From IMG/VR virus record IMGVR_UViG_3300040816_000831: a stretch of DNA of 64,000 bases. One strand, written 5' to 3'. This document shows, piece after piece, positions 1 through 12,959 of this stretch. The translations under genes and the position numbers were made by a program. The stretch is from a virus. The notes under the pieces are model-generated. The model was not told where the DNA came from. It did not search any database and saw only the letters and a list, made by a program, of their open reading frames with translations. Each line of letters starts with the position of its first letter. The stretch's first letter is position 1.

Positions 1-990
1 CAATATAAAATCTTTTGGTAGTTTCATAAGAGATAAAGCTTCTCTTACTGTTAAGTATCTATCTTCATCCGGATGAGTTAAGCACGTTGGCATATGTCCA
101 ACAAATGCTCCTATTTTATCTTTAGGAATCTCTGTAGTTTTTCTCATGATATTACCACCAGCTTTGAGCTTATGATATTGCCTATCGCATTTCTTTGCAA
201 CATTATCATATCCATTTTCTCTCATCCATTTAGCTACTTCTTTATATGTTGTTCTTTCTTCAATGTAGTCCATTGGGTTTGTTGTCTTTTCTATTTTATC
301 TTGAAATTCACTATGTGATATACCACCTTCTAATACTTCAAGAACATATCGATAATATGGTTCTTCAGAAGGTTTCTTTTCATTACAAAGAATTTGACTC
401 ATTGGGTCATCATCTTTTCTTTCAACTTCTCTTATATCATCAGCAATCATTGTAGGTCTTTCTAGTACATATTCAAATAATGGTACTTCATTACCTTTCC
501 AAAAGAAATAGAATGTTCTATCTCGTACTTGGCTGAGTCCATGTAGTATAGATTTTGTTTTAAAGATACTAAAAGTATATCCATTATCTTCTCCTATCTT
601 CCTCAATCTTCTTACAACGGGTTCTCCCATCTTACTTGCAAGCCTTGGTGCGTTCTCTCCCCAAAATACTTTTGGTTGTACTTCACTAAGTACATATTCA
701 GCAGATGTAAACATCCATTCGTTCATAGGATTATTACTTGCAGCTGATGGACTAAGTGAGCTGAGCCCTGCACATGGGCATACAGTATTAATCACATTAA
801 CTTTTTCTGTGTAACTCGCTCCCTCTGAGAGGTTCAAATATGGGACCTCATGGTTATAATGATTTAATAAGTGAGATTCATTAGCTTGAAAGCCTTCATA
901 TGTCATAATATACTTTGGTCTTTCTCCAAAGACATTTTCCATTGCTATTGTTTCTCCACCTATTAGTGGTACTATACTCGCATAACTCAT
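1..990 (-). CDS. C5 cytosine DNA methyltransferase-like protein (3' end runs off the window; absent from ORF track)
   Basis: Hand translation from ATG at 990 (ATGA overlap with upstream stop): MSYASIVPLIGGETIAM...TVCPCAGLS (motif IV PC)...FWGENAPRL (motif VI)...SQVRDRTFYF (motif VIII)...HPDEDRYLTVREALSLMKLP (motif IX-like). Motif I is degenerate. Confidence 0.8.
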   Translation of the reverse strand, partial: MSYASIVPLIGGETIAMENVFGERPKYIMTYEGFQANESHLLNHYNHEVPYLNLSEGASYTEKVNVINTVCPCAGLSSLSPSAASNNPMNEWMFTSAEYVLSEVQPKVFWGENAPRLASKMGEPVVRRLRKIGEDNGYTFSIFKTKSILHGLSQVRDRTFYFFWKGNEVPLFEYVLERPTMIADDIREVERKDDDPMSQILCNEKKPSEEPYYRYVLEVLEGGISHSEFQDKIEKTTNPMDYIEERTTYKEVAKWMRENGYDNVAKKCDRQYHKLKAGGNIMRKTTEIPKDKIGAFVGHMPTCLTHPDEDRYLTVREALSLMKLPKDFIL

Positions 991-1967
991 GCAAAAAACT
1001 CCTCTAGTCCAGCCTTTTCAATTCCATTCCAATATGGATAGAACTCTCTGGATAAATGTATTGATTGTGGTTTCTCCATATATTTAAAATCGAGCTTACC
1101 TTCTTTATTAAAGAGATGACCGGTCCATCTTTTGATACCGTATTCTTTCTCTATGTAATCGTTAAATTTATTTCTTGCATCATTTCTTTCTGACCAAGAA
1201 CCGTAAAATGGTTGTCCTTTATAATATCCTGATTGCGGTATTCTTCTACTTACATCTTCTATTGGAAGCAACTCATATATCTTTGCATTATACTTATGAG
1301 CTTCTTCAATATACCTATCAGCTAAATCTTCTATCTTTTGTCCTAGTCTAATTACATGATGTCTTATATCAATATTACCAAAATAGCATTCAAGCTCTTC
1401 ATAATCGTAAGGAATGTATTTATCAAATCCTTCGTTTAAAGCTCCATTTAAAGTTTTGAATGGAACACTGTTTACTGTCCAACCTGGTCGATACATGCAG
1501 ATGGAATGACTATCACCAATAACTATTTTAGAAGTTGGATTAGGATAGTCGATTCTTTCAGCTTCATTAAACATGCGTTCTAGATTTTTAAGGTCTACAT
1601 CATGCCATTCCGGTTGAACCTCTTTCTTAGCCGATTCCAGTTTTGATTTAACCATTTCGTGATACGGCGGGAAGTCGATTCCAATTGAAAAGACTCTGCC
1701 TTTGAACTTAGAAAAGTTGACAGTGTTCTTAACATAAGGAAAACCGTATACGCCACCAAACATATTAATTCCACCACTCCAATCAGTGCCGTGATAGACC
1801 CAAAGACTATCATAATCATTGTGGTCTTCAATTTCTCCACCGTAGTTAACATCGCAGTTTCCATATTTCTCCTTTATCATATCGCCATACATTACTCCTG
1901 CAGCTCCTCTATGAGAAGCAGCTCTCTTAGCTATTGGAATAAATGGACAATTAATTATATTTTTCAT
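987..1967 (-). CDS. Two-domain protein with C-terminal SGNH/GDSL hydrolase-like domain
   Basis: IVIGDSHS (block I), YFGNIDIRHH (block III-like), QSIHLS (block V-like); C-terminus LEEFFA; own promoter at 1975-2003. Confidence 0.55.
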   Translation of the reverse strand: MKNIINCPFIPIAKRAASHRGAAGVMYGDMIKEKYGNCDVNYGGEIEDHNDYDSLWVYHGTDWSGGINMFGGVYGFPYVKNTVNFSKFKGRVFSIGIDFPPYHEMVKSKLESAKKEVQPEWHDVDLKNLERMFNEAERIDYPNPTSKIVIGDSHSICMYRPGWTVNSVPFKTLNGALNEGFDKYIPYDYEELECYFGNIDIRHHVIRLGQKIEDLADRYIEEAHKYNAKIYELLPIEDVSRRIPQSGYYKGQPFYGSWSERNDARNKFNDYIEKEYGIKRWTGHLFNKEGKLDFKYMEKPQSIHLSREFYPYWNGIEKAGLEEFFA

Positions 1968-1974
1968 TAGATAT

Positions 1975-2003
1975 ATTATACCATACTTTTGTTCAAATGT
2001 AAA
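1975..2003 (-). promoter_or_regulatory. sigma70-type early promoter
   Basis: TTTACA-17 nt-TATAAT with TGG extended -10; same motif occurs ten times in the window. Confidence 0.8.
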
Positions 2004-2008
2004 CGTTT

Positions 2009-3073
2009 TTATTCAAAGAATTCACTAAGGGTATTAGTCTTTTGTACGCGCGCCACGCGTCTACGCGCGCATGCTCGCTCGTCTTCTCTTATCTGTAGGT
2101 ATACACCAAACTGACATGACAACACTTCAGTTCCGTAGTATTTAAGAGAATCTTGTTCATATTGAAATAATTTACTACCGTCTTTCTTATTTATATTGAA
2201 AGCTTTTGGATGAAATACAACATCTTTTGTTAATCCTATTTCATCTGAATTTTCTCTCATATAGTATATTGCTTCGTCATACAATTTCTTTGGAGCTTCT
2301 GGCCACATTAATTGTATTGTATACACAGCTCCTGGACCCGGCGATACAAATCTTTGGTCATGATGATACTTCATTTGTGGTAATACAGATGAAGAAGCAG
2401 CTCCATGGAATCCGTAATAATGTCCTATGCCAGGTTGTTCTCTTAAAAGAGTATAAATCTCTGACATATGATTACATTGTTGCATTCGTTCTAAGAAACC
2501 AGTATCTCTAAAAGAAGATACCCATTCACAAACATCAACTGCATGAAACTTTCTATCTGGTTCGTTATACTTTTCACGACAATAGTTTCTAGCAGCAGTT
2601 TGTATAGATGTGTGTAATTCTGTTGTTCCCCAAATTGGTTGCTTATTCTTTATTGCTTTATCTAAATTATTACGAACATATTGAATATAATCTTTATTTC
2701 CATTTGCTATTCTATCAAAATCAACAAAGACGTTATCTTCTCCTGAAGCAAGAAAATGAACTCCTCTTCCACCATAGAAATGAGATATAAAAGTATTACC
2801 TACAATATTCATTATTGTAGTATCTAGACTTGCTATCTCTTGACCAATAAATCTCATACGGTCATCAAGTGTAATTGTTGGATGAAAATATTCTACATCT
2901 TCGCCAAGACCAAAATCATTCTTGCCATGACGATTTACTGATTCATATTGTTCTTTTGAATATCCAAGTTGTATATTAGACCTTTCATTAACTTTATATA
3001 GAAACCAATTGAACTCTTTCATGAGTTCTTTATCGTAATTCGACCAATCGTAATTATATTTAGTACTTGACAC
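2009..3073 (-). CDS. aGPT-PPlase / 5-hmdU DNA kinase helical-domain family protein (HhH glycosylase-like base-hypermodification enzyme)
   Basis: PGIGHYYGF helix-hairpin-helix-like motif, SPGPGA, EVLSCQFGVY; these resemble the GxGxF...GPGA...ExxLCxxxKY pattern of the family; C-terminus LSEFFE. Confidence 0.6.
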   Translation of the reverse strand: MSSTKYNYDWSNYDKELMKEFNWFLYKVNERSNIQLGYSKEQYESVNRHGKNDFGLGEDVEYFHPTITLDDRMRFIGQEIASLDTTIMNIVGNTFISHFYGGRGVHFLASGEDNVFVDFDRIANGNKDYIQYVRNNLDKAIKNKQPIWGTTELHTSIQTAARNYCREKYNEPDRKFHAVDVCEWVSSFRDTGFLERMQQCNHMSEIYTLLREQPGIGHYYGFHGAASSSVLPQMKYHHDQRFVSPGPGAVYTIQLMWPEAPKKLYDEAIYYMRENSDEIGLTKDVVFHPKAFNINKKDGSKLFQYEQDSLKYYGTEVLSCQFGVYLQIREDERACARRRVARVQKTNTLSEFFE

Positions 3074-3473
3074 GTTCCTCGTTATCTCTCTTTAAATGAA
3101 CAATTGATATATCAGGACATCTTTTTTTAATCTCTTTGATTTGAATTGGGTCATCTTCGAAATGCATTTCTATTTCTACTCCCAAGTCTTTTAACATATT
3201 AATCATTTGTCCTTTAAAGATACCAGAAGCTTTTCTGCCATATAGTGGATTTTCTTTTACTCCATGAGTCACTTTATGATTTTTTAGTTTTCTTTCAAGT
3301 GGATTCATGTAAAGAGTATTATATATTCCTCTAGATTCTAGCATTTTTACTGTAGCTTCTCTATCAGCAAAAGGCCGCCCAGTAATGATGATGTCATCTT
3401 TACCGGGTCTTACGCCTGTGGTGCTTTCACCAAAATAGATTACTCCATCGATGTCAAACGAATTAATTTTCAT
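3060..3473 (-). CDS. HAD-superfamily phosphatase
   Basis: SFDIDGV (motif I), ITGR (II), K (III), HFEDD (IV); start taken at MKINSF. Confidence 0.8.
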   Translation of the reverse strand: MKINSFDIDGVIYFGESTTGVRPGKDDIIITGRPFADREATVKMLESRGIYNTLYMNPLERKLKNHKVTHGVKENPLYGRKASGIFKGQMINMLKDLGVEIEMHFEDDPIQIKEIKKRCPDISIVHLKRDNEERVKY

Positions 3474-4755
3474 AATCATTCTTCGCATCTTGGAAGGTGT
3501 GAGGCAAATCTGCTGCCTTCGGTCTATTCTCTTTGAGCTGTGGAGTAGTAATATCTGTCAATACTCTCCTAGCTAAAGCATCACATTCAAATTTGGCATC
3601 TTGAGTTTTGAGCTGTAATGGAGGAGTCTTTTGAGTCCATGCTGATGGTCCTCTTAAATATCCTACAATGCCCATCTCTGAAGCTACCTTACAAAATCTA
3701 ATTGCTGAAACAACAACTCCACCAGAGTTTGGAGAGTCTTGAACTGAAAGTCTAGCTGACATTTCATATCTTGCTCCTGCAAATCCATAAGCAACCATAT
3801 CAAAGTTAGCTATTTTATTATCAGATGAGATATAATCTCCACCTGGTTTTTGTTGAACAGTAAGAGATGGACCAGCAAATAATGTCATACCTGCAGTTGA
3901 TTCTCCTCTTACGCTGTTTTGTCCTTTTAAAACATTTTCTTTTGATACATGTTTGTTATGTAATCTATATTGTTTTGCCATATTCAAGAAGTCAGTATTT
4001 GCTGTTCTTCCTGTTCTTATATGCTCTTGTCCTTGTGTAGAACCAGCAGCCATATTCATTTGAATGTGTTGTGTTACCATTAAACCTGAATCTAACATAG
4101 CACCTTGTAGAACTTCTGACATTCTTGAAGCTCCCCAGGCTGACCTCATATCTGAACCAACAATTGTAAGTCCTGCATCTATGAATCTTTGTTCAGTTAT
4201 CATAGCATCTTCTGTTGAAATCAATGTCGGTATACAGTTTACGAAATGTATTCCTGCATCTAACGCAACATCAATCCAGTATTTAGAAGCTTCTTCTGAA
4301 CCAACTGGTAAATAGTTAATGAGTACATCTACATCATGATACTGTAGTAACTCAACAGTTCTTTCAAAAGATTCTGCTGGTACAGCTCCATTTACAAATG
4401 TGACTTCATCTGGATAATCATGCATGTGAGGAGCTATTCCGTCCATTTCTGGAGCTGAATAGACCATTGCATCATTATTTACAGCTGAACTATTTGATGT
4501 AGTTGTTATTTTTTCGACATGGTCCATAGCGCAATTAGGTTGAGCTCTTAAAGCTTTTGCTAATTTTTTATTTACTTTCCTTTTATCGATATCAAATCCA
4601 ATAACAAACTCGATGTCGTGTACTGAATATCCGCCGATATCTTCATACATTAGACCAATTTTGTCTTCTGGATTTTCGTTATAATATTGTACACCTTCCA
4701 CTAAAGACTTTGCACAACTTCCGACGCCGATTATTCCGGCTTTTATTTTTGACAT
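3463..4755 (-). CDS. ino1: myo-inositol-1-phosphate synthase-like protein
   Basis: GIIGVGSCA Rossmann motif, INYLPVGSEEA, FVNCIP, NTDFLNM, SDNK, QDSPNSGGVV, KTPP; SD AAGGAG. Confidence 0.85.
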   Translation of the reverse strand: MSKIKAGIIGVGSCAKSLVEGVQYYNENPEDKIGLMYEDIGGYSVHDIEFVIGFDIDKRKVNKKLAKALRAQPNCAMDHVEKITTTSNSSAVNNDAMVYSAPEMDGIAPHMHDYPDEVTFVNGAVPAESFERTVELLQYHDVDVLINYLPVGSEEASKYWIDVALDAGIHFVNCIPTLISTEDAMITEQRFIDAGLTIVGSDMRSAWGASRMSEVLQGAMLDSGLMVTQHIQMNMAAGSTQGQEHIRTGRTANTDFLNMAKQYRLHNKHVSKENVLKGQNSVRGESTAGMTLFAGPSLTVQQKPGGDYISSDNKIANFDMVAYGFAGARYEMSARLSVQDSPNSGGVVVSAIRFCKVASEMGIVGYLRGPSAWTQKTPPLQLKTQDAKFECDALARRVLTDITTPQLKENRPKAADLPHTFQDAKNDYEN

Positions 4756-4817: not shown

Positions 4818-5123
4818 CTATATACTATTAGTTATAACACTTATCAGACCACTTCCAAGGATAATGACTGCTGCTGTGTTTAAAATTATCAATGCTCTAT
4901 CTTTCCAGATAAGAGCTACTATTAACCAACCGAATGTTCCAACTAAGGAAAACGCTTGGTCATAGAGAGCAAGGTCAGGATTAGACCTGCTTGCCATAGC
5001 AATTAAAAGAATAGCTGATGCTACCCATTTAATATACCAATCAATTGTATACTTAGGAGTTGCGCTCTTAAATATACGCTTTGAATTTTTTATTTCTTGT
5101 TCGTTAAATTTCGGTGAATTCAT
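4818..5123 (-). CDS. Small membrane protein with about three TM helices
   Basis: Three hydrophobic segments after DWYIKW; overlaps dCMP deaminase stop. Confidence 0.6.
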   Translation of the reverse strand: MNSPKFNEQEIKNSKRIFKSATPKYTIDWYIKWVASAILLIAMASRSNPDLALYDQAFSLVGTFGWLIVALIWKDRALIILNTAAVIILGSGLISVITNSI

Positions 5124-5544
5124 ATTTTACATTAGCCTCTTTAAATATTTCATGTGTTTTTTCTATTGCTTCTTTCCATCTATCTGGAGTATTTTCTGAA
5201 AGCGATACAACTCTAGATATTCCTGCTTGTATTATACCTAATGAGCAATGACCACAAACTGGTAAACCATAAATATATAATATAGAATCTTTTAAAGATA
5301 TTCCATTTTCTGCAGCATTATATATACAATTCATTTCTGCATGAACTACATATTGATACTTTGTTTCTCTATGATTATATCTTTCTTTACTATCTTCAAT
5401 ACCTTTAGGAAATCCATTATATCCTGTTGCTAATATTTTTCTATCTCTTACAGCAATTGCACCTATTTTTCTACTTGGGTCTTTACTCCATGTAGATATT
5501 TCACGAGCAATATCAAGAAATCTTTTATCCCACTTATTTAACAA
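5104..5544 (-). CDS. cd: dCMP deaminase
   Basis: SKDPSRKIGA, TGYNGFP, VHAEMN, PVCGHC zinc motifs; probable TTG start at 5544 after GAGAGG. Confidence 0.9.
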   Translation of the reverse strand: MLNKWDKRFLDIAREISTWSKDPSRKIGAIAVRDRKILATGYNGFPKGIEDSKERYNHRETKYQYVVHAEMNCIYNAAENGISLKDSILYIYGLPVCGHCSLGIIQAGISRVVSLSENTPDRWKEAIEKTHEIFKEANVKYEFTEI

Positions 5545-6211
5545 GGTCAAAGTGCCTCTCATACACATGTAAGTTTTGTACTTGCCAATAAATTTTACCA
5601 CCACTTTTAAGTGGATGACCATTATAGTATAAATCTTTTTCTAGTTTTTCTAATACGTATTTTTGCCAAGCGTAATCATTTCGATAACCATATACAACGT
5701 CATTACTTCTCATTTGAACTACACAATGTAATTGTTCATCTCTTATATAATATGTAACAGCATTTGTACAAATAAAATCATTCTTACCATCTTCTTTAAA
5801 TTCGCGCCAGATACTTGGTCTTTGATATACCATTGAAGCTCTACGAGAATCTGGATTAATTTCACTTAGTTCTTTTACTACTTGATTATATTGTCTATGA
5901 AATTTTTTACTGAATATAAGATGACCATAATTAGAATTGATTTCACCATAATCATTTGCAGAATATTCCCATGCTGCTGGCGACTTACCATATATTTCAG
6001 CAAGTTTATTAATATTAGTTGACCTAGAATTATACCATTCTATTTCAGCATCAATATATTCTTGATTGGGTTTACCAAAAATTGATGGCTTATCTGCTAG
6101 AAAAGACGCAGCAAATATTTCGATTGTTTTACAACCAGTCTTATCATCGGTAAACTCTTTGTTTTTAAGTTTATCGATAAACGTATTTGCGATATCTTTA
6201 GTCTTCAACAT
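5534..6211 (-). CDS. gp42: dCMP hydroxymethylase (T4 gp42 type)
   Basis: DKTGCKTIEI, EINSNYG, NPDSRRA, DFICTNAV, MRSNDVVYGYRNDYAWQKYVL, LHVYERHF closely match T4 gp42, including the Asp of RND that specifies dCMP over dUMP. Confidence 0.9.
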   Translation of the reverse strand: MLKTKDIANTFIDKLKNKEFTDDKTGCKTIEIFAASFLADKPSIFGKPNQEYIDAEIEWYNSRSTNINKLAEIYGKSPAAWEYSANDYGEINSNYGHLIFSKKFHRQYNQVVKELSEINPDSRRASMVYQRPSIWREFKEDGKNDFICTNAVTYYIRDEQLHCVVQMRSNDVVYGYRNDYAWQKYVLEKLEKDLYYNGHPLKSGGKIYWQVQNLHVYERHFDLVK

Positions 6212-6527
6212 TACTTACCTTTTTGTTGAACATATCTCTTGTTGGGTCTTGGCCTTCCATTTTACCTCGAGCATAAGCAACAGCAAAAGAACAATAGTTA
6301 ATCATATCTTTATAAGTATCTTCAATACTTTCGAAGTTTGGGTCATCGGCTGATTCAAGCAATGAAGTTGCTCTCATCATTTTACCAAGAATAATATCAT
6401 GAATCGTATCAATGCCACGTCTATAATGCATGGCTTGGACTACTGTTGATTCAGAACTTTGATAGTCTTGGGATTTTTTAGTTTGTAGTTCTGCGCATTC
6501 TTGCAGGACTCTTAAGCTTTCTTTCAT
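6198..6527 (-). CDS. Nucleotide modification-associated domain (Nmad1/DUF1599-like) all-helical protein
   Basis: KKSQDY and ESIEDTYKDMINYC motifs; coupled to gp42. Confidence 0.65.
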   Translation of the reverse strand: MKESLRVLQECAELQTKKSQDYQSSESTVVQAMHYRRGIDTIHDIILGKMMRATSLLESADDPNFESIEDTYKDMINYCSFAVAYARGKMEGQDPTRDMFNKKVSNVED

Positions 6528-9858: not shown

Positions 9859-10431
9859 TTAATCCCAATTAATTGCAGGTATTTGTCCATAAAATCCTTG
9901 AGTTGCTTTTAATTGAGTAGGAAAATATTTAGAAAGCTTCTCAATATCTCCATGATCGTAATTTAATTTAGGCAATCTTGCCTCTTTCTTTTGAACTATA
10001 ACAGATACATCATATCCATAAGTTCTCACAGCTGCATCTGAACAGTCAAATCCAGCTAATATAAGATTATATAATAATAATCCTGCATTCCATAATGAAA
10101 CATGTCCACCAACAATATTGTGTCTAAGTGGTGGAACAGATATTGCAAGAATTCCATTTGTATCTATAAGATGAAATATCTTACTTAAAAAATGATGTAC
10201 ATTCAATTGATGTTCAAGTGTATGTGCACACCAAACACAATCAAAATTTCTATCAAAGTCGATTGTATTAAAATCACCTTGATAATCTGATTCGAGTATA
10301 TCTGTTGTATAAACTTTTTTACCTCTTTCTTTAAACATATTAGAAAACTTTCCATCACCTGCGCCAACATCAAGTACTGAATTAAATTGAAAATCTGTTA
10401 CTAACTTTTCAAAGGTGAGTAAACTTCTCAT
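9859..10431 (-). CDS. Class I SAM-dependent methyltransferase (small-molecule type)
   Basis: VLDVGAGDG, HTLEH, ISVPP; ATGA overlap with gp43 stop. Confidence 0.85.
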   Translation of the reverse strand: MRSLLTFEKLVTDFQFNSVLDVGAGDGKFSNMFKERGKKVYTTDILESDYQGDFNTIDFDRNFDCVWCAHTLEHQLNVHHFLSKIFHLIDTNGILAISVPPLRHNIVGGHVSLWNAGLLLYNLILAGFDCSDAAVRTYGYDVSVIVQKKEARLPKLNYDHGDIEKLSKYFPTQLKATQGFYGQIPAINWD

Positions 10432-12959
10432 CCGAAAAAATCCTCCAGGCTTGCAACTTCTTTCGAAGTCCAACCTACTGCTTCCAAGACCGGTTCAATA
10501 GGATCGAGGAATGTTTTTTGAAACTGTGTTTCATGGTCGATGTATTTTCTTAAGCCAAACTCATCTGGAAGATAAGATGGGAAAGCAATTACATTTTCAT
10601 GAATTGAATTTGGTTGACGAAGATATATGAACTTAATCTTTTCGCCATTGTTTATAAGTTCGTATTTCTTTTTAAGCTGATTGTCTTCAATTAGTTTATT
10701 GTAAAGAATAGCTCCACGAACATGTATAGGCGTTCCTTTTTTATAGAGGGTATTTCTATCTTGGAACTTTTTAACTTGAGTCACTCCGCGCGGAAATGCA
10801 ATCTGGTCAGGTTCAAGAGTTTTGAAATAGTTCTTAAACTGTTCGATAGCTTGTTGAACTGTATTTTCATCTTCTTTCATTATGACTTTGAATATATTTT
10901 TAAGAGCATCACGACATGGTTCAGGTGTAGAAGACTTAATTGCTTCAATACCCATAATCTTAAGCTTTGGCTCGGCATATCTCACGCCTTCGTTATCATG
11001 TACATTCATAATATATCTTTTCTTTGCAGTCCAAAGCGCACGGTCAGCGATTGCTTCACGTTTCATAACCATACGATTATCTACTCCACCAAGATACTTA
11101 TACAATTGCTCATAAGACTTTTCAAGCTCTGGTTCAAGCGCTTCACTAGCAACTTTATCTAGAAAGTCGATTGTATTTTCAGGTTTGAATTTTTGTACAA
11201 AGTCGTTTAAGCATACATACAGCGAGTCTGTGTCGATAGCAATAACATAGTCTTTCCATTTTTCAGGTTTGAGCACTCTATTGAGATAGGTGTTAAGCGA
11301 ATATTCGGCCCATCGAATTGTAAGTTGTCCGGTGAGGGTAATTGCTTCTGCGATTCTCTGGTCAAAGAATCGAAAATAGCGATTGCCAAGAGCGCCATAC
11401 AAACTGTTAAGAAGAATCTTAATAGCCATTTGTCTGTTTTCGGCAATTGCAATATCTCTTTCAATTTGATATAATTTTTGTTTGTCATTTTTATCTACCT
11501 TTTCTTTTTCTTTTTGAGCGTTAATCATTTCTTGTTTAATACCAACACGCTCTTTATACATCTCATCGATAATGAATGGTATTATACCTGGCTTATCTAC
11601 ATTAAAATATTGTCCATTAGCTGCAAGAGCTTTACCTTTATTAGGAGCGATACGATGTTCGCTTATAGCACTATCAATATCGAATTGAGCAATCTCTCCA
11701 TTAGCAATCGTTTCAGGCGACATATTGTATTGCATAATGATTGATGGATAGAGAGAGTTTAAGTCAAAAGAAACAACGTTATCATGTATTCCTACTTGTG
11801 GGTCTTTAACAAAGCCACCTGGATAGTTAGACTTTACTTTATCTTCAACGAAAGGTATAGCAATATTGTTTGCAAATAATCTGCGATAGATAATCGTATC
11901 CCATATCATTGTAGTACCGAATGTATCGTTATAGTTAACGCCAGCTTTATATGCCATTGTCATACAAAGAGTAATCAATCCAAGCTTATCTTCGATTTTG
12001 TCGACAAGCTCAACGTCTTTGATATTATAGTCAATAAACTTTTGGTGATTATGCTTGTAAAGAGTATGAAGATTCGAATACTCATCATAAGATAGTTTCT
12101 TTTCTCCTAACACGACATGAGCAATGTTATCAAGTTTATAAGATTCTTGTGGTCCATAAGAATAACCAAACTTCTTAAATAGGTCGAGGTAATCAAGTTG
12201 AGATATACCTTTAAGTTCATAAGCAGTTTGAGTCCTTCCCATCTTAGTTACGTCTTGTCTATCAATCATTCCCCAAGGACTGAGTCTTTTTACGTAAGCT
12301 TCTCCAAGCATACGATTGATTCTATTCACAAGGTATGGAATATCAAAGAACCTTGAATTCCAGCCAGTCACGACATCAGGACAATATTGTTGAGATGACC
12401 AATGAGTAATAAAATTAATAAGCAAGTCATCTTCACGGTCAAACTTACGATATACTACCATGTGGTCTTTCATATAAGATTTGTCAGTATCATAATCACC
12501 TAAGCCCCAGACATAATAAGTATTGCCAATATTGTTTTTCATACAAATGGCTGTAATCTTATGGTCGGCTTTTTCAGGCTCAGGGAATCCATCGTCAGAA
12601 GCAACTTCAATATCAATTGTTGATACGTTGATTTTGTTTCGATCGAATTCGATATTACCAGGATAGTAATCATTAATGAATGCTGGAACGTACTTTGTGT
12701 TTCCATATATCTTTTTACCAGATACGCCTTTATTAGCTTGAACATACTCGTTAGCAGTTCTCATGGATTCGAACCTTTTGCCAGCATTTGCTACACCTAC
12801 AGGATTTCCATCAAGCGATTTCCACTTGGTAGGAAGATTGGTAGATGTAAAAAGGATTGGTTCGTATTTGACTTTCTTTTCAATTCGTCTTCCGTGGTCA
12901 TATCCTCGTAAGAGAATCATATTACCATATCGAGACACATTAGTATAGAATTTCATCAT
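10428..12959 (-). CDS. gp43: Family B DNA polymerase
   Basis: DIEV exonuclease motif, SFDLNSLYPS, KILLNSLYGALG, DTDS, C-terminal SLEDFFG. Confidence 0.98.
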   Translation of the reverse strand: MMKFYTNVSRYGNMILLRGYDHGRRIEKKVKYEPILFTSTNLPTKWKSLDGNPVGVANAGKRFESMRTANEYVQANKGVSGKKIYGNTKYVPAFINDYYPGNIEFDRNKINVSTIDIEVASDDGFPEPEKADHKITAICMKNNIGNTYYVWGLGDYDTDKSYMKDHMVVYRKFDREDDLLINFITHWSSQQYCPDVVTGWNSRFFDIPYLVNRINRMLGEAYVKRLSPWGMIDRQDVTKMGRTQTAYELKGISQLDYLDLFKKFGYSYGPQESYKLDNIAHVVLGEKKLSYDEYSNLHTLYKHNHQKFIDYNIKDVELVDKIEDKLGLITLCMTMAYKAGVNYNDTFGTTMIWDTIIYRRLFANNIAIPFVEDKVKSNYPGGFVKDPQVGIHDNVVSFDLNSLYPSIIMQYNMSPETIANGEIAQFDIDSAISEHRIAPNKGKALAANGQYFNVDKPGIIPFIIDEMYKERVGIKQEMINAQKEKEKVDKNDKQKLYQIERDIAIAENRQMAIKILLNSLYGALGNRYFRFFDQRIAEAITLTGQLTIRWAEYSLNTYLNRVLKPEKWKDYVIAIDTDSLYVCLNDFVQKFKPENTIDFLDKVASEALEPELEKSYEQLYKYLGGVDNRMVMKREAIADRALWTAKKRYIMNVHDNEGVRYAEPKLKIMGIEAIKSSTPEPCRDALKNIFKVIMKEDENTVQQAIEQFKNYFKTLEPDQIAFPRGVTQVKKFQDRNTLYKKGTPIHVRGAILYNKLIEDNQLKKKYELINNGEKIKFIYLRQPNSIHENVIAFPSYLPDEFGLRKYIDHETQFQKTFLDPIEPVLEAVGWTSKEVASLEDFFG

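Follow-up and report, generated by a model that had tools for sequence, protein, structure and literature searches.

A marine phage protein family with a cytosine-C5 methyltransferase fold, an altered but conserved cofactor pocket and a genomic link to dCMP hydroxymethylases

Few DNA enzymes are as well understood as the cytosine-C5 methyltransferases, and the FxGxG loop by which they hold S-adenosylmethionine (AdoMet) is treated as definitional. The first 990 positions of a 64,000-nucleotide stretch of DNA from a marine T4-like phage (IMG/VR record IMGVR_UViG_3300040816_000831; the whole stretch is referred to below as the window) hold a gene of this fold in which the loop is changed, beside genes of a 5-hydroxymethylcytosine (hmC) pathway. 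The locus raises the question of what a C5-directed enzyme does in a phage whose cytosines would already be substituted at C5. The protein encoded here, which will be called methylase-like, belongs to a large and abundant family in which the catalytic machinery is kept and the cofactor pocket appears rebuilt, and which is found almost only in phages predicted to replace cytosine with hmC. It is best classed as an apparently undescribed variant of the C5-methyltransferases, having the fold and catalytic residues of the class and lacking its motifs I and X; neither a characterised member nor a description of this motif set was found in full-text literature searches.

The open reading frame runs from position 990 to position 1 on the minus strand and encodes 330 amino acids before it is interrupted at the window edge, so that the 3' end of the gene (about 65 residues, with motif X and the C-terminal tail) falls outside the window start. 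Full-length relatives have 395 amino acids; the closest, P0001, is 94% identical across all 330 residues. The Pfam family PF00145 is matched over residues 59–329 only, with an E-value of 1.1e-13 and 51.8 bits against a curated cut-off of 22 bits. No close match to the window at the DNA level was found among 50,697 phage records. The gene and its parts are as follows.

1–990, minus strand: C5-cytosine methyltransferase-fold gene, first 330 of about 395 codons (open reading frame, PF00145, relative P0001)
952–975, minus strand: variant motif I, I6-V-P-L-I-G-G-E13, against canonical D-L-F-x-G-x-G-G (translation, mapped onto Dcm and HhaI)
877–909, minus strand: motif II region, strand β2 I-M-T30 followed by Y-E-G-F34-Q-A-N37-E38 (column counts, secondary structure of the model)
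823–840, minus strand: motif III region, Y51-L-N-L-S55-E56 (column counts)
760–783, minus strand: motif IV with the catalytic Cys, V-C-P-C73-A-G-L-S (translation; aligns to the PC of HhaI and HaeIII)
646–660, minus strand: motif VI, G-E112-N-A-P (aligns to the ENV of HhaI and HaeIII)
517–531, minus strand: motif VIII, Q154-V-R156-D-R158 (aligns to QxRxR)
91–483, minus strand: insert of mainly helical structure at the target-recognition position, between motifs VIII and IX (model secondary structure, conservation)
7–60, minus strand: motif IX, R311-Y-L-T-V-R-E-A-L-S-L-M-K-L-P-K-D-F (translation, conservation, profile alignment)

The catalytic residues can be read directly from the translation as P72-C73, E112-N113 and Q154/R156/R158, and the preliminary description of the locus was right that the PC, EN and QxRxR motifs are kept. 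Conservation was counted in 126 full-length cluster representatives, 28–72% identical to P0001. E112, R156 and R158 do not vary among these, and 125 of them have C73. Motif I was likewise correctly given as PLIGGE instead of FxGxGG. An hhalign alignment to E. coli Dcm pairs A-S-I-V-P-L-I-G-G-E with F-I-D-L-F-A-G-I-G-G, and a structural superposition places model residue 1 on HhaI residue 12; the two agree that I/V7 corresponds to Phe18, Leu9 to Gly20 and G11-G12 to Gly22-Gly23 (HhaI numbering). The AdoMet loop has therefore exchanged its Phe for Ile or Val and its first Gly for Leu.

Two further parts of the pocket appear to depart from the canonical pattern. At the end of β2, where canonical enzymes carry a ribose-binding Glu, position 30 is Ser in 112 of the 126 representatives (89%) and Thr in 10, and residues differ at position 32; hhalign is unreliable in this stretch. 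The family consensus of the motif II region reads S30-Y-x-x-F34-x-x-N37-[DE]38; the β2 end seems to lack a conserved acid. F34 and N37 are kept in 94% and position 38 is acidic in 98%, and the N37-[DE]38 pair might substitute for the missing ribose-binding acid. Motif X, which reads ICQNVPV in full-length relatives, lacks the Gly-Asn pair: Q342 (kept in 98%) and N343 (94%) of the C-Q-N-V-P stretch occupy its place, and HMMER pairs the family Gln with the canonical Asn of HaeIII. In motif III, 87 of 126 representatives (69%) have Asp at position 55, and 22 more (17%) have Glu or Asn there. W92, which is aligned to the Leu of motif V, is kept in 84%. A profile of the 126 representatives aligns to M.HaeIII, M.HhaI, DNMT1 and CmoX solely from position 40–60 on.

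The preliminary description called the AdoMet motif degenerate. This term does not hold, as few positions in this large family are better conserved than the altered residues of motifs I, II and X: P8, L9, G11 and G12 are each kept in 96–98% of the representatives, and the changed motif I as such in 121–124 of them. Judged by these counts the altered motifs would form a conserved, rebuilt and still working pocket and not a decayed one. A pocket without a ligand should drift, whereas few parts of the protein are better conserved than this one, from which we infer that it binds something common to every member of the family.

The AlphaFold2 model of P0001 (mean predicted local distance difference test score, pLDDT, 96.3) has the typical two-domain C5-methyltransferase fold. 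On superposition it gives Z-scores of 25.7 with HaeIII, 25.3 with HhaI and 23.4 with CmoX, with model residues 1–363 covered; for HaeIII and HhaI the root mean squared deviation is about 3 Å across 277–290 residues. The target-recognition insert is mostly helical in the model and is partly conserved across the family, at K274 and A295.

The hmC pathway that had been placed next to the gene is indeed there. The relevant features of the neighbourhood are the following.

5534–6211, minus strand: gp42-type dCMP hydroxymethylase, near the head of a co-directional gene run (PDB 1b49, E 1e-67; signature RSND...RND; phmmer match to T4 gp42, E 2e-70)
6198–6527, same co-directional run: Nmad1-like gene, preceding the hydroxymethylase
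987–4755, minus strand: swap-prone cassette site between the gp42 and dCMP deaminase (cd) genes and the methylase-like gene
987–990, minus strand: ATGA overlap of the stop codon of an upstream gene for a 326-amino-acid protein with the start of the methylase-like gene (sequence)

The hydroxymethylase gene encodes a homologue of thymidylate synthase (TS) that carries the RSND and RND (Asp) signatures and has an Asp three residues ahead of the catalytic Cys. Within this enzyme group, proteins that keep D169 are 5-hydroxymethyl-dCMP synthases, and the D169N form is a 5-hydroxy-dCMP synthase (PMC13326640). By this signature the window homologue is a true T4 gp42-type 5-hydroxymethyl-dCMP synthase, and the hmC pathway is accordingly real. 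A pathway to 5-hydroxymethyldeoxyuridine (5-hmdU) and thymidine hypermodification, as suggested by the dCMP deaminase and a protein with the HMUDK_hel domain, was considered and discarded because the TS homologue is of the gp42 type, has Asp at the specificity position and keeps Asp169. The identity of a 5-hydroxy-dCMP synthase was discarded since the D169N signature is absent.

The gene order was compared in 80 loci from IMG/VR and additionally in assemblies, at 58–95% identity, most of the sampled loci coming from one clade. Without exception Nmad1 comes first in those loci, then the gp42-type TS, the dCMP deaminase, a variable cassette and the methylase-like gene. Of the loci, 48 extend 5.5 kb or more upstream, and 45 of these have a same-strand TS with the signature RSND...[KR]ND, at a median distance of 4.3 kb. 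The four-nucleotide overlap is identical in L005, L088, L102, L121 and L122, where the preceding gene varies, and is best read as translational coupling of the methylase-like gene to whatever precedes it. Downstream in relatives come bS21, uvsX, gp40 and gp41, and because of this the locus can be matched to the position 42 – b-gt – uvsX – 40 – 41 of T4. The window itself also has homologues of gp43, regA, gp62, gp44, gp45, gp46, gp47 and gp55. No homologues of T4 gp56, gp1, alpha-gt or beta-gt were found by phmmer in the 64-kb window, which leaves the rest of the genome uncovered. The bS21 gene lies directly after the methylase-like gene at L003:11219-11476 and L005:11220-11456; bS21 has been described as a core gene of pelagimyophages (PMC7029224), and its presence hints at the phage lineage and the host.

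The link to hydroxymethylases extends beyond the clade of the window. Pseudoalteromonas phage XG4, with a protein at 29% identity, has TS, HAD, a nucleotidyltransferase/kinase and two glycosyltransferase (GT) genes followed by the methylase-like gene. L088 (28% identity) has TS, deaminase and a GT-like protein followed by two tandem paralogues, and L122 has TS and, further on, a nucleotidyltransferase, a GT-like protein and then the methylase-like gene. The link is also present in L102 and L103, and in L107 with the TS downstream of the methylase-like gene. Cyanophage S-TIM5 has a sole TS homologue, annotated as ThyA, which carries Asp where E. coli has Asn177 and lies 2.4 kb away on the opposite strand; the phage also has a homologue of DNA alpha-glucosyltransferase (AGT). 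These observations refer to L001 4769-5605 and W01:6802-7188. Owing to this combination of an Asp-type TS with an alpha-glucosyltransferase homologue, the cultured S-TIM5 probably carries modified (hydroxymethylated or glucosylated) cytosine.

In the P0327 clade a TS is absent within 8 kb, and three large viral contigs have a canonical ThyA together with an Asp-type TS of the hydroxymethylase signature at another place. This Asp-type TS is 55 kb from the methylase-like gene in G005; in G008 it is immediately downstream. In L121, of the same clade, and in G005–G007 the methylase-like gene stands last in a large amino-sugar cluster that encodes a DegT aminotransferase, hexapeptide acetyltransferases, GT2, epimerases and an oxygenase of the PhyH type; these large viral contigs are estimated by CheckV to be 40–65% complete at 120–180 kb. 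There are two exceptions. The 84-kb contig L105, which may be an incomplete genome, has a canonical ThyA as its sole TS, and L087 shows no TS link, with only 17 kb visible. Taken across these several separate lineages, the sequences indicate that the family is linked genome-wide to gp42-type hydroxymethylases. The conflict between a C5-methyltransferase and C5-hydroxymethylated DNA, to which the preliminary description drew attention, is accordingly both real and general, since the whole family is tied to hmC phages.

The preliminary description further connected the enzyme with inositol. The window encodes an inositol-1-phosphate synthase-like protein, and the site at which this gene stands holds different cassettes in different relatives, with L003, L005, L102 and L002 illustrating the alternatives.

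Window type: inositol-1-phosphate synthase-like protein, HAD, HMUDK_hel protein and the 326-amino-acid protein
Galactofuranose type: UDP-galactopyranose mutase, epimerase and a 370-amino-acid protein
Homologues of T4 alpha-glucosyltransferase (E 3e-92 in L102)
GT-like family of about 420 amino acids, with nucleotidyltransferase-kinase fusions
Lone 270-amino-acid protein

A quick maximum-likelihood phylogeny of the methylase-like proteins shows at least 11 switches of the cassette label, with galactofuranose cassettes nested inside inositol clades at very short tree distances. The enzyme thus shows no co-variation with the donor. Throughout these swaps it remains constant, as do its pocket residues, and its co-substrate would therefore be one that all carrier phages have in common. 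The proposed tie to inositol is not supported by this comparison, and an inositol-specific hmC transferase was rejected on the same grounds, the cassettes being exchanged without change to enzyme or pocket.

An exhaustive search places 823 clusters (at the 50% identity level) in the family at E <= 1e-3, and 253 at E <= 1e-30, and members are common in Tara and other marine metagenomes. Among the 50,697 phage records the only cultured carriers are TIM5-like cyanophages and Pseudoalteromonas phage XG4 (vB_Psh_XG4). The genomes of 185,579 prokaryote species gave 18 matches, all on contigs of metagenome-assembled genomes; those examined carry phage-type genes, and no restriction-modification context was seen for these matches. 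No members were found in isolate bacterial genomes within that set. The family is thus essentially confined to phages. Two tandem paralogues occur in two unrelated phage contigs (L087:8001-10668 and L088:4899-7303).

A PLIGG-type N-terminus is also seen in long proteins of 598–1462 amino acids (P0201, P0192, P0163 and P0185). One long member carries a CXXC zinc finger, and P0292 and P0321 are matches in the EukProt transcriptome set. Because of this long-protein sub-branch and the eukaryotic transcriptome matches, the variant motif I appears not to be restricted to phages of bacteria. A link of the eukaryote-like members to DNMT6 or to the DNMTs of dinoflagellate retrotransposons was sought and could not be established. 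P0171 used as a query gave no match in IMG/VR.

Comparison with known systems sets out what is shared and what is particular to the family. The bacterial type II enzymes M.HaeIII and M.HhaI (PF00145) have in common with it the fold, motifs IV (PC), VI (EN), VIII (QxRxR) and IX, and an insert at the target-recognition position. They differ in motif I, which is FxGxGG in these enzymes and [IV]PL[IV]GG in the family, in motif IV (PCQxFS against PCAGLS) and in motif X (GNAVP against CQNVP). The family furthermore has no conserved acid at the β2 end, its insert is mostly helical, and it is phage-only, without a restriction partner and tied to dCMP hydroxymethylases.

The best single-sequence PDB match of the window protein (E 0.005) is CmoX, the DNA cytosine C5-carboxymethyltransferase of Synechococcus phage S-B43 (PDB 8YF3; PMC12783734). 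Both are phage enzymes of the PF00145 fold with an altered cofactor pocket; CmoX transfers a group other than methyl and starts a hypermodification pathway. However, CmoX keeps Phe25, Glu47 and Asp69 for adenosine and is defined by SPPC and by Arg350 at the position of HhaI Asn304 (PMC12783734), whereas the family has CPC and Gln-Asn. CmoX is also accompanied by CmoA, and no CmoA-like gene is present in the Pfam lists of the examined family loci. A carboxymethyltransferase of the CmoX type was for these reasons discarded, the family having V/T-C-P-C and Gln-Asn in place of SPPC and Arg, and no CmoA-type gene in those lists.

The C5-methyltransferases that are coupled to TET/5mYOX oxygenases in phages (PMC8256090) resemble the present system as marine phage enzymes encoded in a cytosine-hypermodification cluster with GT or kinase-type genes, in many cases close to that for DNA polymerase, and acting by a post-replicative route. 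They make 5-methylcytosine (5mC) for oxidation by TET (PMC8256090), whereas the partner of the methylase-like family is a pre-replicative gp42-type hydroxymethylase. Tet_JBP is absent from the precomputed Pfam lists of the family's loci; it had no match in the four viral records searched, but the control genomes gave none either. The likeness to the T4 beta-glucosyltransferase locus is one of genomic position between the hydroxymethylase gene and uvsX and not of homology, and T4 has no C5-methyltransferase-fold gene at its 42 – b-gt – uvsX position.

From these data we tentatively favour a putative post-replicative DNA cytosine-C5 enzyme, probably AdoMet-dependent, that modifies cytosines left bare by the nucleotide-level pathway. 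The methylase-like gene is the last, translationally coupled gene of a cytosine-hypermodification operon composed of Nmad1, gp42, dCMP deaminase, a variable donor/transferase cassette and the methylase-like gene, followed by bS21-uvsX-gp40-gp41. The Cys73 nucleophile, aided by Glu112, Arg156 and Arg158, a set of residues that is cytosine-specific as a whole, would attack C6 of a DNA cytosine after replication. An adenosyl cofactor is predicted still to be bound, most likely AdoMet in an altered pose, and the methyl group to be transferred to cytosines that the hmC pathway has left unsubstituted. The virion DNA would then contain hypermodified hmC and some 5mC, with bare cytosine absent. AdoMet is suggested by the retention of the Asp in motif III and of the motif I GG, and by the aromatic W92 at motif V where motif I has lost its Phe; the adenine-stacking aromatic has apparently moved from one motif to the other. 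The tandem paralogues, which are usual for sequence-specific methyltransferases, and the CXXC finger fused to one member were counted in favour of C-directed DNA methylation. Each cluster has a transferase candidate of its own (T4-type AGT with E 3e-92, the GT-like protein of about 420 amino acids, or HMUDK_hel/c6), so the methylase-like enzyme would not be needed for group transfer.

Several points weigh against C-directed methylation. Three AdoMet-contacting elements are changed together and conserved in the changed state (motif I Phe to Ile/Val and Gly to Leu, β2 acid to Ser, motif X GN to QN), and the equivalent motif X position decides the transferred group in CmoX (R350; PMC12783734). 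Full replacement of C by hmC, as in T4, would leave a C-methylase without a substrate, and an ordinary orphan methyltransferase would not be expected almost solely in hmC phages. The Pfam families that MetaGPA finds enriched in fully cytosine-modified metavirome contigs exclude PF00145, which is uninformative for this subfamily. That plain AdoMet methylation has been lost, with a non-methyl group such as hydroxymethyl put on cytosines that escaped gp42 or with hmC being activated covalently, is a serious possibility, though less likely than not.

The form of this idea in which a co-substrate other than AdoMet is used on DNA cytosine, for example in direct hydroxymethylation, so that the enzyme is a DNA-level back-up for gp42 making a handle for the neighbouring transferases, is somewhat unlikely. 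C5-methyltransferases add aldehydes to cytosine in vitro without AdoMet, the conserved pocket changes cluster at the positions nearest the transferred group, and the R350 of CmoX is a precedent for motif X setting that group. In the inositol/HMUDK_hel cluster of L105, where the sole TS is a canonical ThyA, the enzyme would be the only visible source of a C5 handle, although that genome is possibly incomplete. Against such a co-substrate stand the lack of a conserved special-cofactor neighbour (no CmoA-like gene is in the Pfam lists of the examined loci), the CPC and QN of the family, unlike the SPPC and Arg of CmoX, and the retention of the motif III Asp and other adenine-side positions. An action on hmC instead of C, in which Cys attack at C6 serves to exchange, remove or derivatise the 5-hydroxymethyl group, is unlikely. 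C5-methyltransferases deprived of AdoMet strip formaldehyde from hmC or couple thiols onto it in vitro, the change from PCQ to PCA accompanies the altered cofactor side, and a gp42-type hydroxymethylase is linked to the gene in nearly every lineage with a long searchable contig. The constancy of the pocket across cassettes nevertheless makes specificity for inositol or any other single donor impossible, clusters with a T4-type alpha-glucosyltransferase require no such activation, the L105 contig shows no hydroxymethylase, and the adenine-side conservation suggests that a nucleotide cofactor is still bound.

Readings that separate the enzyme from hmC or from phage DNA are weaker. It is improbable that the family consists of ordinary orphan anti-restriction C5-methyltransferases whose hmC neighbours reflect only the inherited order of a T4-type hot-spot (42 – beta-gt – uvsX). 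The synteny with T4 42 – b-gt – uvsX – 40 – 41, the sampling of loci mostly from one clade and the frequency of four-nucleotide overlaps in compact phage genomes would fit this, but the link holds at 28–50% identity and where synteny is lost (S-TIM5 on the opposite strand, G005 at 55 kb, L107 with the TS downstream). Isolate bacterial genomes moreover lack the family, as do all the other cultured phages among the 50,697 records, and its near-exclusive occurrence in hydroxymethylase-encoding phages argues against an unrelated orphan methylase. It is very improbable that the target lies outside phage DNA, the enzyme being either a DNMT2-like RNA (tRNA) m5C methyltransferase or aimed at the C-containing DNA of the host. 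This would explain the retention of the gene in a phage without bare cytosine, and DNMT2 and DNMT6 are PF00145 enzymes with all motifs that can leave DNA unmethylated; yet the big target-recognition insert and the superposition resemble DNA-bound DNA methyltransferases, and the [ST]LxxF[FM] ending of many members is like that of the phage DNA polymerase.

This tail recurs at the locus. Many methylase-like proteins end in [ST]-L-x-x-F-[FM]; P0001 ends in L-Q-L-D-R-F-M-I, and the window copy stops before that end. The DNA polymerase gp43 ends in SLEDFFG (10428–10450, minus strand), the 326-amino-acid protein in GLEEFFA (987–1010, minus strand) and the HMUDK_hel protein in TLSEFFE (2009–2035, minus strand). 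The shared tail may be a candidate clamp-docking tail. A complex prediction with three copies of the window gp45 and residues 346–395 of the family alignment scored 0.31 against a mark of 0.32, a value that speaks neither way on docking.

Three other genes of the neighbourhood are worth describing. A small membrane protein of DUF6552 is encoded at 4818–5123 (minus strand), between the dCMP deaminase and the inositol-1-phosphate synthase-like gene, and is found in many, not all, relatives. The HMUDK_hel protein (2009–3073, minus strand) matches the helical domain of 5-hmdU DNA kinase (PF18723, E 1e-11) and stands beside a dCMP-specific hydroxymethylase; this suggests a kinase- or transferase-type step on hmC and not on 5-hydroxymethyluracil. 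The pairing recurs in L105, alongside an FkbM-type methyltransferase. The 326-amino-acid protein (987–1967, minus strand) is without a Pfam match and has a 410-amino-acid homologue (E 1e-16) at L105:4991-6223, which sits equivalently, directly ahead of the methylase-like gene, in a distant phage contig. Since the homologue holds the equivalent position, the 326-amino-acid protein is assigned to the inositol/HMUDK_hel cassette.

What the family means for phage biology depends on the reaction that it catalyses. If leftover cytosines are methylated, as is tentatively preferred here, replacement by hmC would be incomplete in widespread marine phages and topped up by 5mC, and sequencing chemistries, restriction enzymes and host defences would then see the phage DNA differently. 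If the reaction is a new one, the fold has been repurposed as in CmoX, and the enzyme could serve in the labelling or mapping of C and hmC. If it dispenses with AdoMet or reads hmC, the AdoMet-independent chemistry of C5-methyltransferases in vitro would have its first natural counterpart, and the enzyme would be an accessory general to hmC phages. The cultured carriers, the TIM5-like cyanophages and Pseudoalteromonas phage vB_Psh_XG4, make the question directly testable.

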